Origin: Candidatus Magasanikiibacteriota bacterium
GTDB taxonomy: Bacteria; Patescibacteriota; Patescibacteriia; Magasanikbacterales; GWA2-37-8
DNA: 64,000 bases
Reading direction: 5' to 3'
Assembly (NCBI GenBank): GCA_016189025.1
Contig: JACPGS010000019.1
Location: 16,272 to 80,271, forward strand
Below are positions 4,120 to 44,399 of this stretch, piece by piece. Under the pieces are notes generated by a model that worked only from the letters and a program-made list of their open reading frames with translations, did no database searches and had not been told where the DNA came from. The position numbers and the translations under genes are program-made. The first letter of the stretch is position 1; every line of letters begins with the position of its first letter.

Positions 4120-6411
4120 ATGATGGAAAAAGCCTACGACCCTAAAAAATACGAGGCGGACATTTACCGGCGCTGGGAGGCGAGCGGGTTTTTCGCGCCC
4201 GAGGCGCGTCCGCCTTGGGCGGATAATCCAGGGCCAGACACTCGTGAGCCGTACACTATTATCATGCCGCCGCCGAACGCCAATGCCCCTTCGCATGTGG
4301 GACATGCGCTGGGTTATACTATTCAGGATATTTTAATCCGCTGGCAGCGGATGCGCGGCCGGCGCACCCTGTGGCTGCCGGGCACCGACCACGCCGGGTT
4401 TGAAACCCAGGTGGTATTTGAAAAAAAGCTGGAGAAAGAAGGGCTTAGCCGTTTTAAAATGACGCGGGAAGAATTTTACCAGGCTTGCTGGGATTACGTG
4501 CAGACCAACAAACATATTTCCGAAGAGGCGATCAGGCGCCTCGGCGCTTCCTGCGACTGGAGCCGCAATATCTTTACCCTGGATCCGGAAATTATTAAGG
4601 TAGTGTACCAGACCTTCAAGCAGATGTATGATGACGGGCTGATTTATCGCGGCAACCGCATCAGCCACTGGTGCCCCAAACATCAGACCACTCTGTCCGA
4701 TTTGGAAACTAAATACGAAGAGCGCGCCGAGCCTTTTTATTATTTTAAATACGGCCCGTTTGTCATCGGCACCAGCCGCCCGGAAACCAAGTTTGGCGAT
4801 AAATACGTGGTAATGCACCCGGACGATCCGCGCTATGCTAAGTATCACGAGGGACAGCAGATAAATTTGGAATGGATCAACGGGCCGATTACGGCAACCA
4901 TCATTAAGGACCAGGCGGTGGACCGGGAATTTGGCACCGGGGTGATGACCATTACCCCGGCCCACGATGCGGTGGACTTTGCGATTGCGGAACGCCGCGG
5001 GCTTGATATTGAGCCGGTGATTGATAAGCGCGGCAAGCTGTTGCCGATCGCCGGCGAGTTCGCCGGCCGGAAGATTTTAGAGGCCCGATCGAAGATTGTG
5101 GAGAAGCTGCAGGCTAAAGGACTGGTGGATCATATTGACAAAAAATACCAACATAATGTTCAAATGTGTTATAAATGCAGCACCCTAATTGAGCCGCAGA
5201 TTGTGCCGCAGTGGTATGTAGCCATGACTAAACCATTGCCGGGCGGCCGGCCTAGCCTGCGCGATCTGGCTTTACAGGCGCTAGATAAAAAAGAAGTAGA
5301 GATTGTTACCGAACGGTTTGCCAAAATTTTCCGCCACTGGATGGAGAATATCCGCGACTGGCCGATCAGCCGGCAGATTTGGTGGGGGATTCCGATTCCC
5401 GTGAAATATTGCGGTGATTGCGGAGAGATAATTATTGATGTCATCGGTTCAGTGAAAAAGTGTCCGCAGTGTTCGCGCGAACAGCTGACCCCCGATCCCG
5501 ATACCTTTGACACCTGGTTTTCCTCGGGCCAGTGGCCGTATGCCACCTTGCTTGCTAACGATGCCAAGCAGGGCACGCAGACGTTGGCGCAGTATTACCC
5601 CACGCAGGTGATGGAGACCGCCTGGGATATTCTGTTTTTTTGGGTGGCGCGGATGATAATGTTCTCTTATTACCGCACCGGCAAGCCGCCGTTCCAAAAA
5701 GTATTTTTGCATGGTTTAGTGCGCGACAAAGACCGCCAAAAAATGAGCAAAAGCAAGGGCAATGTGATTGACCCTTTGGGAGTGATTGATTTATACGGCG
5801 CCGATGCCCTGCGTTTTGCCCTGATTTTTTCCACCGCCGCGGGCAACGACATTCCGCTCGCCGAAGATAAAATTAAAGGCATGAAGCATTTTGCCAATAA
5901 AGTGTGGAACATTGCGCGGTATATTACTGGCATTGGCGATGGTCATGTCATTCCCGCCCCCGTGTCATTCCCGCGTAAGCGGGAATCCACGGGGGTAAAC
6001 TCCAGCGGGAATCCAGTGCCGGCGAGCGACTGGATCCCCGCGTTCGGCGGGGATGACAAATGGACAGACGCCGACAAACTAATTCTCTCCCAACTCAACC
6101 AAACCATTACAGACGTCACAGACAACCTAGAAAATTTCCGCCTGCACGAAGCGGCGCAGACGCTTTACGATTTTATCTGGCATGAGTTTGCCGATAAATA
6201 TCTGGAAGCCAGCAAAGAACAGCTGAAAAACGAAGCGCTCAAAAACTCCACCCTTAATAATTTATACTTTGTCCTTGCTACCTCGCTCAAACTCCTCCAC
6301 CCGTTTATGCCTTTTGTTACCGAAGCGATTTGGGGTGAGATGTATGGGAAAGAAAGGTTACTTATAGTTGAGAAATGGTCTTCTTCAACGGACGAGTCCG
6401 AAGTGGTATAA
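4120..6411 (+). CDS. valS: Valyl-tRNA synthetase. It is a short form (763 aa) without the C-terminal coiled-coil.
   Basis: 'PPPNANAPSHVGHALGYTIQDILIRWQRMRGRRTLWLPGTDHAGFETQ' matches the ValRS HIGH region. 'KMSKSKGNVIDP' is the exact ValRS KMSKS motif. The anticodon-binding region 'KVWNIARYI…LILSQLNQTI' is present. Confidence 0.85.
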   Translation: MMEKAYDPKKYEADIYRRWEASGFFAPEARPPWADNPGPDTREPYTIIMPPPNANAPSHVGHALGYTIQDILIRWQRMRGRRTLWLPGTDHAGFETQVVFEKKLEKEGLSRFKMTREEFYQACWDYVQTNKHISEEAIRRLGASCDWSRNIFTLDPEIIKVVYQTFKQMYDDGLIYRGNRISHWCPKHQTTLSDLETKYEERAEPFYYFKYGPFVIGTSRPETKFGDKYVVMHPDDPRYAKYHEGQQINLEWINGPITATIIKDQAVDREFGTGVMTITPAHDAVDFAIAERRGLDIEPVIDKRGKLLPIAGEFAGRKILEARSKIVEKLQAKGLVDHIDKKYQHNVQMCYKCSTLIEPQIVPQWYVAMTKPLPGGRPSLRDLALQALDKKEVEIVTERFAKIFRHWMENIRDWPISRQIWWGIPIPVKYCGDCGEIIIDVIGSVKKCPQCSREQLTPDPDTFDTWFSSGQWPYATLLANDAKQGTQTLAQYYPTQVMETAWDILFFWVARMIMFSYYRTGKPPFQKVFLHGLVRDKDRQKMSKSKGNVIDPLGVIDLYGADALRFALIFSTAAGNDIPLAEDKIKGMKHFANKVWNIARYITGIGDGHVIPAPVSFPRKRESTGVNSSGNPVPASDWIPAFGGDDKWTDADKLILSQLNQTITDVTDNLENFRLHEAAQTLYDFIWHEFADKYLEASKEQLKNEALKNSTLNNLYFVLATSLKLLHPFMPFVTEAIWGEMYGKERLLIVEKWSSSTDESEVV
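5947..6061. repeat. MITE/RPE-like palindromic element inserted in-frame within valS. The terminal inverted repeats are GTCATTCCCGC…GCGGGGATGAC. There are two internal hairpins: attcccgcg-taa-cgcgggaat and atccccgc-gttcg-gcggggat.
   Basis: A second copy with the same core (gtcattcccgc…gcgggaatccagt…gagcgactggatcccc…ggggatgacaaat) sits intergenically at 29725..29796. The valS copy carries a 43-bp internal duplication. It encodes an extra ~30 aa (…PAPVSFPRKRESTGVNSSGNPVPASDWIPAFGGDDKW…) in the loop between KMSKS and the anticodon-binding helix. Confidence 0.65.
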
Positions 6412-10516: not shown

Positions 10517-10930
10517 AAGCAAAAAGGACTCCTGGCGGAGCCCTTAAGCTTTAGAATTCATGATCATCACTGATCAATAACACTATACCACATCACTAGC
10601 TAATTTGTCAAGCGGAGTGGTGTGGATATAATATCCGACCTATTTTATACCTTTAAGCCATCTCAAAACCCACTATTGTCATCCTTTCACCCCGCCTAGC
10701 GAGGTTCAGGACAGGCTTTGAGACTATTAGGCCCCCCGACTTAGTCGGGGTCGCTCAGGGTAAACTCCGCGGAAAGCTTTGCCCTAAGCCATGTGGTAAG
10801 CTTGCCAAATCAATTGCCGAAGGGATCTCTGTCTTAAGGGAAATTTTGGACAGAGATTCCTCGCTTGACACTCGGAATGACAGTTTTGAGATGACCTCCA
10901 TTTGAGATTTATAAATTGGCGGAGTGAGAT

Positions 10931-19859: not shown

Positions 19860-19900
19860 AGTTTATCCACAAGTACCCCTTGACAGGTATATTATATAGT
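19860..19900 (+). promoter_or_regulatory. Conserved motif GTTTATCCACAAGTACCCCTTGACA (contains a perfect DnaA-box 9-mer, TTATCCACA) followed by a -35/-10-like TTGACA…TACTAT
   Basis: The same ~25-nt motif occurs at 29840-29866, and a variant at 29694-29720. Further TTATCCACA 9-mers occur at 13369 and 44207. Confidence 0.4.
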
Positions 19901-20006
19901 TATACTATAAAGTGGTAATTAGTACCGAGCTAATGCCACGGCCGCGCTCTAGTTGCCTGCTGGTCGGCAAACCAAACGGGCGGCGCGGGCAGGCGGGGCT
20001 GTTTTT

Positions 20007-26177: not shown

Positions 26178-29100
26178 TTAGTAAGTGAGGGTCTTGGCCT
26201 GAAGCGGCAAGTCGGTGCCCATGGCGGTTATGTTCGTAGAGACGCCATCACCCCAAGTAACCTGGCGGCTGCCGATGCGCACCGAGAGACTGGGATTCGG
26301 GTTGGTAGTCGTCTTGGTGGCCGCATCGGTGGTATCCAAGGTGATGTAAATCGTTTTGGAAGCGCCCGAGGAGATTTGGAAATCCGTAAAGTTAGCGTCC
26401 CTTAGGGCAGAATTGCCGCTGTTGGCGCTGGCGAAAGTCTGGGTGGCGGCGTAGTTGGTGGTAGCCAACTGGTTAGCGGTAGCCACGGAATCTTTGTACA
26501 CCGTCAGGGCGCGCGTTGCCCCTACTCCCGCCGCCTGCGAAATAGTAGTGCCGAAGTTGAAGTTCATCAACTGCACCATAGCAGTGTGGCCTTCCACATT
26601 CGCCTTGTTGATAATCGTAAAGATTCCCACGATCTGTGCGCTGTTCGGCGACGAAGCGCCGGTGGGAGAATTGGCATCCCAGCCCACAGTAAGCTTGGCG
26701 CGGTACAAGGTAGTGGTTGGAGCATAAGCACCACGGCTCAATCCGTATTGATTGGCGTTAGTAAGGAACGAGACGGTCGGGGTAATTGAAACGCCGGATT
26801 GCGTACCTACCGCAGTGAACGGCGTAATACTGCCGACATTGAAGGCCGAAAGAATTACGGGTTCAACTGTTTGTCCGGTGGAAGCGGCACCGAGTTCGCC
26901 AAAGGCGGTAAAGTCAACCACCAGTTTAATCTTCTTCGTCGCTCCTTTCGGAACCTCTAAATTGAGGCCGGTGAAGGTGGCGTGCGAGTAGGTGCTGGTG
27001 GCCGCCGCGGTGCCGGCGACGCTGTCGCTGAAAGCAGACACCGTGCCGCCAATCTGGGCGTCGGTAGCATCATCCACCAGCCTGACATTTTTCATGGTAC
27101 CGGTGGCGCCGGGGCTGAACCGCGCGCTTACCACAAACTGGGTAATCTTAATTGGTTCCGTGGAGCTCGCTTGCAGAGCGAACTTGGCAATCGTCTGATT
27201 AATATCGCCCATCAGGTAGTTGTTGGCTACCGGCGAATCCGAGTCTACGGAAGCCATAAAGGCGCCCGACGAAGAGATTTCCACATTCTGCAGCCGGATG
27301 GTCTGACCGACTAAGCTGGCGGAGGCTCCGGTGGTCTTGCCAGTAGCGGTTACCCCTGTCAGGTTCATGAGGGGGGTTGCCGTAAGCGTGGTGGTCTTAA
27401 TATCCGCATACACATCCACCGTGTACTGCCCGCCGTTGGTAATGCTTACTGCTGGCGAAACATTATAGGTGAAAGTATTGACCGTGGCACAGGTTGTTGC
27501 CGGGTTCAACTCTTGGCCCAGCTTTTTACCGGTGGAATCCTTCAGCGTTAGGTACTGCAAGTAAGTGCCGGTACAGGTATAGGCGGTGCGGTCGGCCAGG
27601 GTAATCTGCGAAACTTCCACGTCTTCGCCGGCGCCGGCCGTAATGACAAACGAAGCTACTTTAATCTGGGCAGCATTAACAGTACCGGTAGGATTGTCGG
27701 CCGATTTGTCGCCAAAGGCTGTGTTCATTGCCAGACTGACGGTGCCGGAGCGTACCGTTAGGGGGTTTCCGGTTTGCATAGCGGTATTAATGCTCCCCAG
27801 CGAAAGCATGCCATAGGCATTATGGTAACCTGCCGATAAGGCAATAGTAATTATTTCGCCGGCGTCGATGCTGGTATGGGTGAGGTCAGCGACAATAGTT
27901 ACCGTAGCCGTGGCGCCGGCTTTAAGGATAAAACTATTGCCGAAACTGCCCCAGCCATTGTGGGGCGCGCCATTGGCAGTAAGCATGGGTATAGTAGAAC
28001 CAACCTGCGATCCATCAACCTTGAGCCGGACATTGACTAAAGCATTATCCTGGCTGCCGCCTGAGGTGGAAGATACGTTTAAACTGCTGATTTTAATATC
28101 TTCGCCATTCGCTTGCCATAAGAATTTGGCCAGCACTAGATTGGTTGCGCTGTCCGGCACGATACCGGTGGGAGCATCGGCGGCAGTGGTTTGCGCCAGC
28201 GTGCCGGCGCTGAAACCGCCGGCGGTTCTTAATAATAAATTATCCAGCCGGCCGGTGCCGTAGGCCGAGAAGTATTGAATCCCAAGAATGCGAGTGTTAG
28301 GCGAGTAGGCCGATACATCTTGCTGTAAGTCGCGGGCAATGGTATGCCAGGCGCTGTTGGCGACGGTAGGGTCAATTTGGTAATATAAGGTATTGCCGCG
28401 CCAGCCGGGGATGTTATTAGTGGCGTAAGAAAGATATAGATACCCGTTGTTAAGGTCCGTGTAATCGGTTTTTAGCATGATCAGGAAATTGGCCTGATTC
28501 TGGTATTTGAAGTCCCACTGTAACACTGGGAAATTAGGGAATTGCCAGGGATTATTGGCCGGAGCGTAAAACACCATTCTGACCGAAGGGGAGCTGGCGG
28601 TCAGCGAGATTACCCGGCCATGCGCCGGATCTTCATCCACTATATTCTGAATTACCGAAGTAGTGCCGCTCGGATGAATAAACCAGGGATTGGTGTCGCC
28701 GTCACTGCCGTCTTCGTAGATTACCGAAGACAGAGGCGCGTTCGCGGAAAAATTCGCCACCACATCAGTACCGGCCGCATCAACGGTTACTGCCACATTG
28801 GGGAAAGTATATCCTTGCTTTTGCGCTACTAACTGATAATTGCCTGGCGGCAGGCCGGGCAACCCATAGCGGCCGGTCGCATCAGTTAACACACTGGCAT
28901 TGCCCGCCACTCCCACCGCTACTCCGGAGAGCGGATTATTTTGACTATCCGTGACCGTACCGGAAACCGTAGCCAAGGGCACTGTTTTTAAGAGCGCTAG
29001 ATTGTCTATCCGGCCAGTGCCATAACTAGAGAAGTATTGAATGCCGAGAATGGTAGTGCCCTGGGCATAGGCCGCCACGTCAGCCTGCAGATTGCGGGTT

Positions 29101-29573
29101 AAGGTGTGCCAAGCCCCATCGGCCAAGGAGAGATCAAGTTTGTAATAGAAAGTATTGCCGCGCCAGCCCGGAGTATTATCGGTGGCATAAGAAAGATAAA
29201 GATAGCCATTATTGATGCTGGTGTTATCGGTTTTAAGCATGACGAGGAAATTGGCGCGACTCTGGTATTTATAATCCCACTGGAGGATAGGGAAGCTGGG
29301 GAATTGCCAGGTGTTATTGGCGGGAGCGTAAAACACCATCCGTACCGAAGGAGAGCTGGCGGTAAGTGAGATTACCCGATCGTGAGCCGGGTCTTCATCC
29401 ACTATATTCTGAATTACCGAAGTGGTGCCGCTAGGATGAATAAACCAGGGGGCGGTGTCGCCGTCACTGCCGTCTTCGTAGACGACAATGTCGGCGGCCT
29501 GCGCCGGGAGGGGTGAATTTAACAAAACCAGGGCGAGCGTTAGGAGGGCGCTTAAATAGCGGCGGAATAGCAT
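26178..29573 (-). CDS. Large secreted protein (1131 aa). It has two N-terminal copies of an uncharacterised ~190-aa module, each followed by a carboxypeptidase-regulatory-like (CarbopepD_reg) beta-sandwich. The rest is a Thr/Ser/Ala/Val-rich beta-repeat region.
   Basis: Signal peptide 'LLTLALVLLNSPLPAQA'. Module copies start 'VVYEDGSDGDTAPWFIHPSGTTSV…' and 'VIYEDGSDGDTNPWFIHPSGTTSV…', and end 'YFSSYGTGRIDNLALL'. 'TVSGTVTDSQNNPLSGVAV…TDATGRYGLPGLPPGNYQLVAQKQGYTF' is CarbopepD_reg-like. Confidence 0.7.
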   Translation of the reverse strand: MLFRRYLSALLTLALVLLNSPLPAQAADIVVYEDGSDGDTAPWFIHPSGTTSVIQNIVDEDPAHDRVISLTASSPSVRMVFYAPANNTWQFPSFPILQWDYKYQSRANFLVMLKTDNTSINNGYLYLSYATDNTPGWRGNTFYYKLDLSLADGAWHTLTRNLQADVAAYAQGTTILGIQYFSSYGTGRIDNLALLKTVPLATVSGTVTDSQNNPLSGVAVGVAGNASVLTDATGRYGLPGLPPGNYQLVAQKQGYTFPNVAVTVDAAGTDVVANFSANAPLSSVIYEDGSDGDTNPWFIHPSGTTSVIQNIVDEDPAHGRVISLTASSPSVRMVFYAPANNPWQFPNFPVLQWDFKYQNQANFLIMLKTDYTDLNNGYLYLSYATNNIPGWRGNTLYYQIDPTVANSAWHTIARDLQQDVSAYSPNTRILGIQYFSAYGTGRLDNLLLRTAGGFSAGTLAQTTAADAPTGIVPDSATNLVLAKFLWQANGEDIKISSLNVSSTSGGSQDNALVNVRLKVDGSQVGSTIPMLTANGAPHNGWGSFGNSFILKAGATATVTIVADLTHTSIDAGEIITIALSAGYHNAYGMLSLGSINTAMQTGNPLTVRSGTVSLAMNTAFGDKSADNPTGTVNAAQIKVASFVITAGAGEDVEVSQITLADRTAYTCTGTYLQYLTLKDSTGKKLGQELNPATTCATVNTFTYNVSPAVSITNGGQYTVDVYADIKTTTLTATPLMNLTGVTATGKTTGASASLVGQTIRLQNVEISSSGAFMASVDSDSPVANNYLMGDINQTIAKFALQASSTEPIKITQFVVSARFSPGATGTMKNVRLVDDATDAQIGGTVSAFSDSVAGTAAATSTYSHATFTGLNLEVPKGATKKIKLVVDFTAFGELGAASTGQTVEPVILSAFNVGSITPFTAVGTQSGVSITPTVSFLTNANQYGLSRGAYAPTTTLYRAKLTVGWDANSPTGASSPNSAQIVGIFTIINKANVEGHTAMVQLMNFNFGTTISQAAGVGATRALTVYKDSVATANQLATTNYAATQTFASANSGNSALRDANFTDFQISSGASKTIYITLDTTDAATKTTTNPNPSLSVRIGSRQVTWGDGVSTNITAMGTDLPLQAKTLTY
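28160..29500 (-). repeat. Two tandem copies of the ~190-aa 'YEDGSDGDTxPWF…YFSAYGTGRIDNL' module (protein-level repeat, roughly 60-90% aa identity)
   Basis: Aligned by eye against the six copies in 39225..41225 and 53160..55150. Confidence 0.6.
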
Positions 29574-29724
29574 ATTAACCAGGCGAATTAAAGGTTATTT
29601 AGGCGGGTTGTAACCGCGTTTTGTTCGCTAAAGATAGTAAACGACAAATTATAGCATAAGTCAATGCCGGCGTCAAGGGCAGGCAGAGGCGGTGGAGTTA
29701 TCCGCAGGTATCCCTTGGCAACAT

Positions 29725-29796
29725 GTCATTCCCGCCGCAAGCGGGAATCCAGTATCGGTGAGCGACTGGATCCCCGTTTTGACGGGGATGACAAAT
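29725..29796. repeat. Intergenic copy of the MITE/RPE-like element found in valS
   Basis: gtcattcccgccgcaagcgggaatccagtatcggtgagcgactggatccccgttttgacggggatgacaaat. The spurious ORFs 5943..6125(-) and 29673..29855(-) both translate it to 'GIQSL.GTGFPL…'. Confidence 0.6.
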
Positions 29797-29837: not shown

Positions 29838-29880
29838 ACGTGTGGAGTTATCCACAAGTACACCTTGACGGGTTAACTAT
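29838..29880 (+). promoter_or_regulatory. Second copy of the GAGTTATCCACAAGTACACCTTGAC motif (DnaA-box-like TTATCCACA plus a -35-like element) upstream of the transglutaminase-like giant gene
   Basis: Compare 19860-19885. A degenerate copy lies at 29694-29720 (gagttatccgcaggtatcccttggcaac). Confidence 0.4.
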
Positions 29881-44144: not shown

Positions 44145-44399
44145 TGAGCCAAGAAGTACCATTCCGGTAGTTCTGTCGCGGTACTATACGCCCCTCATGG
44201 GCGTATTTTTATCCACAGTTTTAGCCGCGAGTTCACCTTTACAAGCATCTTGTATAGTTGTATATTAGCATTGAGGGGGCAAGGATTGACGTAAAATGTG
44301 TCTGCAGGTATTCTGCAGAGAGGAACCCTCCCCGCTATTTTAGTAGTGAATTAGGATAAGTTTATCAAATTATCGTAATTACTCCCTTTTCTTCTCTTT

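Follow-up and report, generated by a model that had tools for sequence, protein, structure and literature searches.

We analysed a 64,000-nt stretch of contig JACPGS010000019.1 from a Candidatus Magasanikiibacteriota bacterium (hereafter the window), in which a palindromic element lies in frame within valS, the gene for valine--tRNA ligase (ValRS). The gene occupies positions 4120-6411 of the forward strand and encodes 763 residues. Its open reading frame (ORF) is that of a class I synthetase, with Pfam matches to tRNA-synt_1 (residues 15-578) and Anticodon_1 (residues 652-758); the product is 100% identical to a protein of Candidatus Magasanikbacteria annotated as valine--tRNA ligase, its nearest relatives are likewise annotated, and the KMSKS motif is intact. 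Read directly from the sequence, the element within valS runs from GTCAT to ATGAC at 5947-6057 on the forward strand (111 nt), and a shorter relative of 68 nt lies at 29725-29792, between divergent promoters. At both sites the flanking letters are CAT ahead of the element and AAAT after it. The first-pass annotation of this DNA had correctly located the two copies; the ends that it gave, 6061 and 29796, take in the shared AAAT, and the element itself stops at 6057 and 29792.

Architecture of the valS and intergenic copies

The two copies are nearly identical in the parts that they have in common, which include the blocks CATGTCATTCCCGC, GCGGGAATCCAGT, GAGCGACTGGATCCCCG and CGGGGATGACAAAT; a single 42-nt block is confined to the valS copy. 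Antisense translation, which had been offered earlier as confirmation of homology, does yield the corresponding peptides GIQSLAGTGFPL and GIQSLTDTGFPL, and these do no more than restate the identity of the DNA. Each copy consists of two facing hairpin units that carry a TGTC tag on the outside (a head-to-head arrangement) and are separated by a 13-nt spacer. The general form of a unit is tGTC-AT-TCCCGC / loop / GCGGGA-AT-CCAG (that is, GTCAT-TCCCGC..GCGGGA-ATCCAG). The tGTC tag stands ahead of the stem at 5946-5949, 5963-5966 and 29724-29727, and in the minus-strand units that end at 6058 and 29793. Stems are 8 bp long and start with AT (ATTCCCGC/GCGGGAAT and ATCCCCG(C)/(G)CGGGGAT), loops are 4-6 nt, and the tail is CCA(G).

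Three of these units match the published pattern of the 'Ssn-related motif' (SRM), HGTCWYN(0-2)YYVSBRHN(0-5)WNVSBRGN(0-2)RNCYNB, which occurs in the window at 5963-5990 (+), 6030-6058 (-) and 29724-29752 (+), against 0.24 matches in shuffled sequence. The fourth unit (29766-29793, -) misses the pattern by one stem position. Each individual hairpin pattern is matched twice in the window, compared with 0.03-0.04 times in shuffles.

The intergenic copy is the simpler of the two. Unit 1, TGTCATTCCCGC-CGCAA-GCGGGAATCCAG (29724-29752, +), is followed by the spacer TATCGGTGAGCGA (29753-29765, +) and by unit 2, which reads TGTCATCCCCG-TCAAAA-CGGGGATCCAG on the minus strand (29766-29793). In the valS copy, the outer 5' arm of the first unit (GTCATTCCCGC, 5947-5957, +) pairs with 6005-6014; this arm also occurs in a widespread variant described below. 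It is followed by the 5' side of an inner stem, CCCCGT (5958-5963, +), which pairs with ACGGGG at 5989-5994 both in the minimum-free-energy structure and in the family consensus. The inner loop holds a complete simple unit, GTCATTCCCGC-GTAA-GCGGGAATCC (5964-5988, +), after which come the 3' side of the inner stem with a conserved TAAACTCCA segment (5989-6004, +) and the outer 3' arm with its tail, GCGGGAATCCAG (6005-6016, +). The spacer (6017-6029, +), whose flanks CCAGT and ACTGG pair in the fold, leads to the second hairpin unit, which on the minus strand reads TGTCATCCCCGC-CGAAC-GCGGGGATCCAG (6030-6058).

Both copies are predicted to fold as single-stranded DNA (ssDNA) far better than shuffled controls: the values are -23 kcal/mol (z -6.1) in the intergenic copy and -40.2 kcal/mol (z -7.0) in the longer valS copy. 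The advantage over shuffles holds for either DNA strand, and the structure comprises three hairpins closed by a terminal stem. A search of Rfam, with the whole window at the gathering threshold and with both copies at E values up to 10, returned nothing meaningful; the best score was 18 bits for FtrB, against a cut-off of 66.

Within valS, the element coincides exactly with codons 610-646, from the first base of the one to the last base of the other, and adds 37 residues (VIPAPVSFPRKRESTGVNSSGNPVPASDWIPAFGGDD) rather than the approximately 30 first estimated. Only one of the three sense frames of the element is free of stops, and it is the frame in use. Thermus thermophilus ValRS (PDB: 1GAX) aligns to residues 3-603 and 645-755 of the query, with 604-644 lying opposite a loop of 9 residues. 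An AlphaFold model built with 62 homologues (predicted local distance difference test score, pLDDT, 84 and predicted template-modelling score, pTM, 0.82 overall) places a coil at approximately 606-649, with pLDDT of about 47-54, between helices 582-605 and 650-671, for which pLDDT is about 90 or more. Thus the earlier proposal of an in-frame insertion in a ValRS loop agrees with the codon boundaries, the alignment and the model, and the insert is predicted, from this low-confidence coil, to supply extra disordered residues to a surface loop.

Among 120 aligned homologues, this loop ranges in length from next to nothing to some 40 residues, and the element takes the place of the usual loop of 10-17 residues rather than extending it. 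The comparison with close relatives that the first-pass annotation called for goes in its favour: the closest ValRS relatives (P0002-P0005, about 80% identical outside the loop) do not have the GTCAT-type signature. One closest relative (locus L245) shares the gene order of the window, and the gene order around valS in L241 matches too.

A CGTC-tagged repeat family and its nested variant

The features of these units are those of a described class of repetitive extragenic palindromes (REPs). As set out in a 2013 survey by Di Nocera, De Gregorio and Rocco (BMC Genomics, PMC3733652), prokaryotic REPs fall into two superfamilies, tagged GTAG and CGTC; members of the latter often have a TGTC tag, 8-9-bp stems that start with AT, loops of 4-5 nt and a 3-nt tail, and they are predominantly head-to-head dimers, often heterodimers. 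In that survey, CGTC-1 is equated with the Neisseria dRS3 repeat, and two Rickettsia palindromic elements (RPEs) of R. conorii are assigned to the superfamily: RPE-6 to CGTC-1 and RPE-4 to CGTC-4. It also catalogues in-frame CGTC and GTAG REPs within genes, some of them tRNA synthetase genes, in which dimers encode 20-30 residues and clusters 43-82.

A second line of work concerns the Neisseria Transformation Sequence (NTS), CGTCATTCCCGCGMAVGCGGGAATCYRG, which includes the old dRS3 repeat (PMC11893778, Nat Commun 2025). The same study defines the degenerate SRM, which is present in many bacteria, and describes small GIY-YIG nucleases (SsnA, cd10448), whose genes are typically flanked by the motif and which bind and cleave the hairpins in ssDNA form only.

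The copies in the window resemble CGTC-1 in their (C/T)GTC tag, AT-started 8-bp stem, short loops, 3-nt tail, head-to-head heterodimeric arrangement and in-frame intragenic occurrence. Their hairpin is nearly the NTS consensus, and three units fit the SRM pattern. They differ from CGTC-1 in their host, since Patescibacteria (the Candidate Phyla Radiation, CPR) does not figure in the phylum listing of the 2013 survey; the valS big-loop unit also departs from the CGTC-1 form by its structured loop. NTS copies are reported to be rarely intragenic (2% in N. meningitidis; PMC11893778), whereas one of the two loci here is. The first-pass comparison to RPEs was apt, given the TGTC/CGTC tag, the AT-started 8-bp stems and the head-to-head layout: as in Rickettsia, palindromic repeats lie in frame in housekeeping ORFs and are read as surface peptides. 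The link to RPE-4 and RPE-6 is made through their assignment in the 2013 survey rather than by direct sequence comparison, and the host organisms differ; RPE-1 is a longer and different element. Taken as a whole, the two copies are very probably head-to-head heterodimers of CGTC/TGTC-tagged REP hairpins of the dRS3/NTS, RPE-4/-6 and SRM family, which explains the observations best. The element adds a new phylum and a new host gene to a kind of repeat known since 2013, for which a candidate enzyme followed in 2025.

A further observation concerns the 42-nt block of the valS copy, which had been annotated as an internal 43-bp duplication. A metagenome scan uncovered a widespread big-loop unit, GTCATTCCCGC-CCCGTATCAAGTACGGGG-TAAACTCCA-GCGGGAATCCAG, with the core …CCCCGT..ACGGGG-TAAACTCC…; its junction, CGGGRTAAACTCCRGCGGGAATCCAG, is matched by at least 120 metagenome stretches. 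In two of the fetched loci, L284 and L205, a simple unit is nested in the inner loop of the big-loop unit as in valS, and L205 repeats the layout of the valS copy (outer arm, short stem, complete simple unit, ACGGGRTAAACTCC, outer 3' arm). Four others (L261, L272, L298 and L309) carry different inserts at the equivalent place. The architecture of the valS copy is found again in unrelated metagenomes, and the supposed duplication is a nested hairpin unit and not a tandem repeat. Read from its sequence, the valS copy is built as a nest of three levels, with a simple unit in the inner loop of a big-loop unit and an ordinary unit as partner. Such a nest was not found described for CGTC-1 in the available portion of PMC3733652.

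Nesting is not the only sign of a target within palindromes. Among 121 listed genome dimers (see below), many in Rhodocyclales (L134, L135, L144, L164, L189, L192, L208 and L227) and Planctomycetota (L124, L128, L160 and L185) are centred in longer palindromes, as are dimers of H. neapolitanus according to PMC3733652. Because of these nests and palindrome-centred dimers, hairpin loops look like a preferred insertion target. We note as examples the conserved, composite palindromes TAGGGAAACGCTGA…TCAGCG.TCCCTA and GTTGCGGAAAG…CTTTCCGCAAC, which have a dimer at their exact centre. Separately, in L125, L127, L155, L200, L204 and L226 a duplicate of the terminal 11-12 nt of the dimer plus 6-7 nt of its flank stands on one side or on both (for example, atactcGTCATTCCCGCGctcatactcGTCATTCCCGCG); this may be a footprint of insertion or repair.

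In-frame copies across genomes and in other ValRS loops

The family is not confined to the window. A strict 30-base compact dimer, GGAATCCAG-N9-15-CTGGATCCCCG-N4-8-CGGGGATGAC, matches at least 120 loci in a collection of contigs with one genome per species. The matches listed come from Patescibacteria, Saccharibacteria, Planctomycetota, Nitrospirae, Omnitrophota and Zixibacteria, and from alpha-, beta-, gamma- and delta-proteobacteria, cultured sphingomonads included. The single hairpin CTGGATYCCCG-N4-9-CGGGRATGAC matches at least 120 viral contigs, among which those listed include Neisseria-type arrays and many lone hairpins. All 121 further dimers listed from the genome collection are head-to-head, like the two in the window; they scarcely differ in their hairpins, their spacers vary freely, and the DNA on either side is unrelated.

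Of the 121 listed dimers, 29 are within long open frames. Clear cases on inspection are the genes for PheT (L184, another Magasanikbacterium), the CCA-adding enzyme (L183), IleRS (L137, with two dimers in a single gene, and L225, with one), HsdS (L132 and L197), NadB (L219), UbiB (L231), reverse transcriptase (L205), a protein resembling membrane glycosyltransferases (L239) and TsaD (L243). In-frame insertion of such hairpins is a common event. The first-pass annotation had called it rare outside Rickettsia, which is at odds with the 2013 catalogue (PMC3733652) and with the many in-frame cases among the listed dimers. A literature search with the peptide signatures returned no papers.

Two of these genes have further peculiarities. 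The Sphingobium IleRS gene of L137 (1370-4696, -) contains, besides its two separate dimers, a third hairpin-like segment, all of them in frame; the dimer in L225 IleRS occupies the same first site. The TsaD proteins of L243 (4445-4547) and L247 (8728-9969) are 50-70 residues longer than usual; the excess in L243 is a nested CGTC-REP dimer, and L247 TsaD has several repeat-like low-complexity segments.

We also compared the DNA of ValRS orthologues from other CPR organisms. In five of them, differing CGTC-type hairpins occupy the equivalent loop, with the stems TCCGAG.. (L241), CCCCG/TCCCGC (L242), TCC(A/C)GCG (L243), TCCGGA/CCTGAA (L244) and TGCGAGC (L247). These hairpins begin 0-2 codons past ..ARF(V/I)L(S/N) and stop 0-3 codons ahead of T.AD(K/R), and the peptides that they encode are wholly different between lineages. 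Among the 120 ValRS homologues, all eight GTCAT-type inserts are within this one loop, and their carriers fall in at least five places of a neighbour-joining ValRS tree. No GTCAT-type insert was seen elsewhere in these 120 proteins, in which positions of about 430-452 and 484-486 take other insertions. The loop can also grow by another route: in a Doudnabacteria ValRS (L246, 2790-2830) it is filled by the heptanucleotide microsatellite (AAATTAC)x4, which is translated as EITNYKLQITN, and we rejected this case as a palindrome or hairpin.

We tentatively propose, with something short of even confidence, that the ValRS linker loop, which runs from the helix behind KMSKS to the first anticodon-domain helix, is a recurrent CPR landing pad for CGTC-type hairpins, that the exposed loops of existing hairpins are preferred, and that these sites can be re-colonised indefinitely. 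The preference for exposed hairpin loops is suggested by the recurrent occupation of the ValRS loop taken together with the multi-level nesting, and these two features may be new.

Possible mobilisation, alternative explanations and significance

We hypothesize that the units are non-coding, non-autonomous DNA that would exist as ssDNA hairpins and be recognised in trans. From the literature cited above, they may spread through ssDNA intermediates aided by a small GIY-YIG Ssn nuclease or, less likely, by a Y1 transposase of the REP-associated tyrosine transposase (RAYT) type, and new copies would land preferentially in exposed hairpin loops. The valS copy would have entered, or replaced, the hypervariable linker that joins the last catalytic/stem-contact helix to the first helix of the anticodon-binding domain. 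In coding DNA, only stop-free, frame-preserving insertions in tolerant loops would persist, and the survival of the valS copy is presumably owed to its length of exactly 37 codons, to the lack of stops in the frame that is used, and to its translation into a disordered surface loop. The encoded peptide most likely has no function of its own and is carried along as a tolerated passenger.

Several partner genes are consistent with this scheme. As in Ssn systems, small GIY-YIG genes lie beside such hairpins in nine fetched loci (L031, L108, L109, L074, L002, L098, L048, L136 and L063). In the CPR contig L247, an 83-residue GIY-YIG protein (Pfam E 1e-17) is encoded two genes upstream of the REP-bearing valS; it is 38% identical to a hairpin-flanked GIY-YIG protein, and a shallow homologue search with the CPR protein gave 39 matches, most of them without a name.

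Several considerations weigh against this interpretation. To our knowledge, the mobility of CGTC REPs has never been shown experimentally, and we know of no transposition mechanism demonstrated for the family. The window contains only two loci of the repeat. It has no ssn gene: a GIY-YIG motif expression and phmmer searches with GIY-YIG and Y1_Tnp queries found none in any of its six-frame ORFs. The GIY-YIG gene of L247 is itself not immediately adjoined by hairpins. The loop of the closest syntenic orthologue (L245, P0002), searched for an empty site, cannot be aligned because it is hypervariable, and the insertion therefore can be neither dated nor given provable boundaries. Finally, the work on Ssn demonstrates cleavage and an effect on transformation, not transposition (PMC11893778).

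A closely related possibility is that the elements are REPINs (inverted REP doublets) mobilised by a RAYT, an IS200/IS605-like Y1 enzyme, instead of Ssn. The architecture of two inverted REPs and a spacer, folding into a long hairpin, is indeed that of REPINs (Bertels and Rainey 2011), and Bertels and Rainey regard the Neisseria 21-mer ATTCCCGCGCAGGCGGGAATC as a REPIN with a link to a Group 2 RAYT (bioRxiv 10.1101/2021.07.10.451892). Furthermore, two CPR loci, L242 and L140, have Y1_Tnp genes no more than a few kb from dimers, and the L242 protein has a weak match to NCBIfam REP_Tyr_transpos. That match, however, scores 36 bits against a cut-off of 80; both Y1 genes fall below the NCBIfam RAYT cut-off, neither is flanked by hairpins, and the window contains no such gene. 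Canonical REPINs are GTAG-tagged and accompanied by a flanked single-copy RAYT, whereas the tag here is TGTC, of the CGTC class, and the 2013 survey associates no dedicated transposase with CGTC REPs (PMC3733652). We therefore regard a RAYT as an unlikely agent.

A different explanation holds that the insert is a lineage-specific functional feature of ValRS, with selection acting on the peptide itself or on a hairpin that the mRNA forms at the domain boundary, and this would account for the recurrent use of the loop. The confinement of all eight GTCAT-type inserts to one loop, though other sites tolerate insertions, fits such a role, as does the replacement rather than lengthening of the usual loop. 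On the other hand, like DNA is present in the intergenic region of the window and in unrelated genes and phyla, the peptides have nothing in common between lineages, the closest relatives do without the insert, and the segment is modelled as a low-confidence coil. Selection for such a feature appears improbable.

[quoted passage not shown] A classical MITE is a deletion derivative of an insertion sequence (IS), moved by a DDE transposase that acts on terminal inverted repeats and leaves a target-site duplication. The size of 68-111 nt is suitable, and the ends GTCATTCCCGC and GCGGGGATGAC are inverted repeats; these, however, are the outer arms of two self-contained hairpins that also occur singly (L243 and the viral matches). 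No direct repeats flank the element (CAT and AAAT at both copies, unrelated flanks at the 121 listed dimers), the spacer between the units is not conserved, no IS with these ends was seen, and the published classification puts such elements among REPs (PMC3733652). In the strict sense the term is not supported, and we consider a MITE origin very improbable. An assembly artefact can practically be dismissed: hairpins common to many organisms of like samples can mislead assemblers into a chimeric join at a community-wide repeat, but valS stays in frame with strong homology on either side, the neighbouring gene order agrees with L241 and L245, and independent assemblies have analogous inserts in the equivalent loop.

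Some other features of the window deserve mention. Two adjacent paralogous genes at 66-2772, with DNA blocks 73-84% identical, are phosphoglycerate mutase (iPGM)-like by synteny with L241 and L245, relatives in which the duplication is kept. A candidate third, degenerate copy of the element at 10660-10724 shares only GGATGACAAT..GTGGGT and GGGTAAACTCC, and its status as a copy was not confirmed. It falls in a gene-free 290 nt (10640-10930) that contains cagGGTAAACTCCgcggaaagc, a sequence that recalls RNase P RNA in its GGUAAACUCC region and the big-loop REP in its TAAACTCC segment; this stretch has no Rfam match even at E values up to 1 and could be an undetected non-coding RNA or a decayed repeat. 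A repeated upstream motif, GGAGTTATCC(A/G)CA(A/G)GTA..CCTTGAC..TATA (29694-29711, 29844-29861, 19863-19911 and 44221-44269), combines a DnaA-box-like TTATCCACA with a following -35-like TTGAC and stands ahead of three large genes. Two of its copies bracket the intergenic REP dimer. The motif probably serves as a promoter or regulator site specific to the lineage. Very large genes for secreted or surface proteins lie at 26178-29573 (-), 39.2-41.2 kb and 53.2-55.1 kb, with internal repeats of about 740-760 nt common to the three loci.

Hairpins of the CGTC-REP/Ssn-motif family, whose known hosts were mostly Proteobacteria along with a few other phyla, thus extend into the CPR, where they are written into essential genes as added loops. 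For annotation, peptides such as VIPA..GIQ, SFPRKRES, WIPAF.G and LDSR.RGND in CPR proteins are best taken as repeat-derived rather than as conserved motifs. A testable hint that target choice favours hairpin loops comes from the nesting of copies and from the repeated occupation of the ValRS loop. Should this hold generally, length variation in the housekeeping proteins of CPR bacteria (ValRS, PheT, TsaD and the CCA-adding enzyme), whose genomes are otherwise regarded as streamlined, would have a systematic source, as yet uncatalogued, in REP-encoded peptides.

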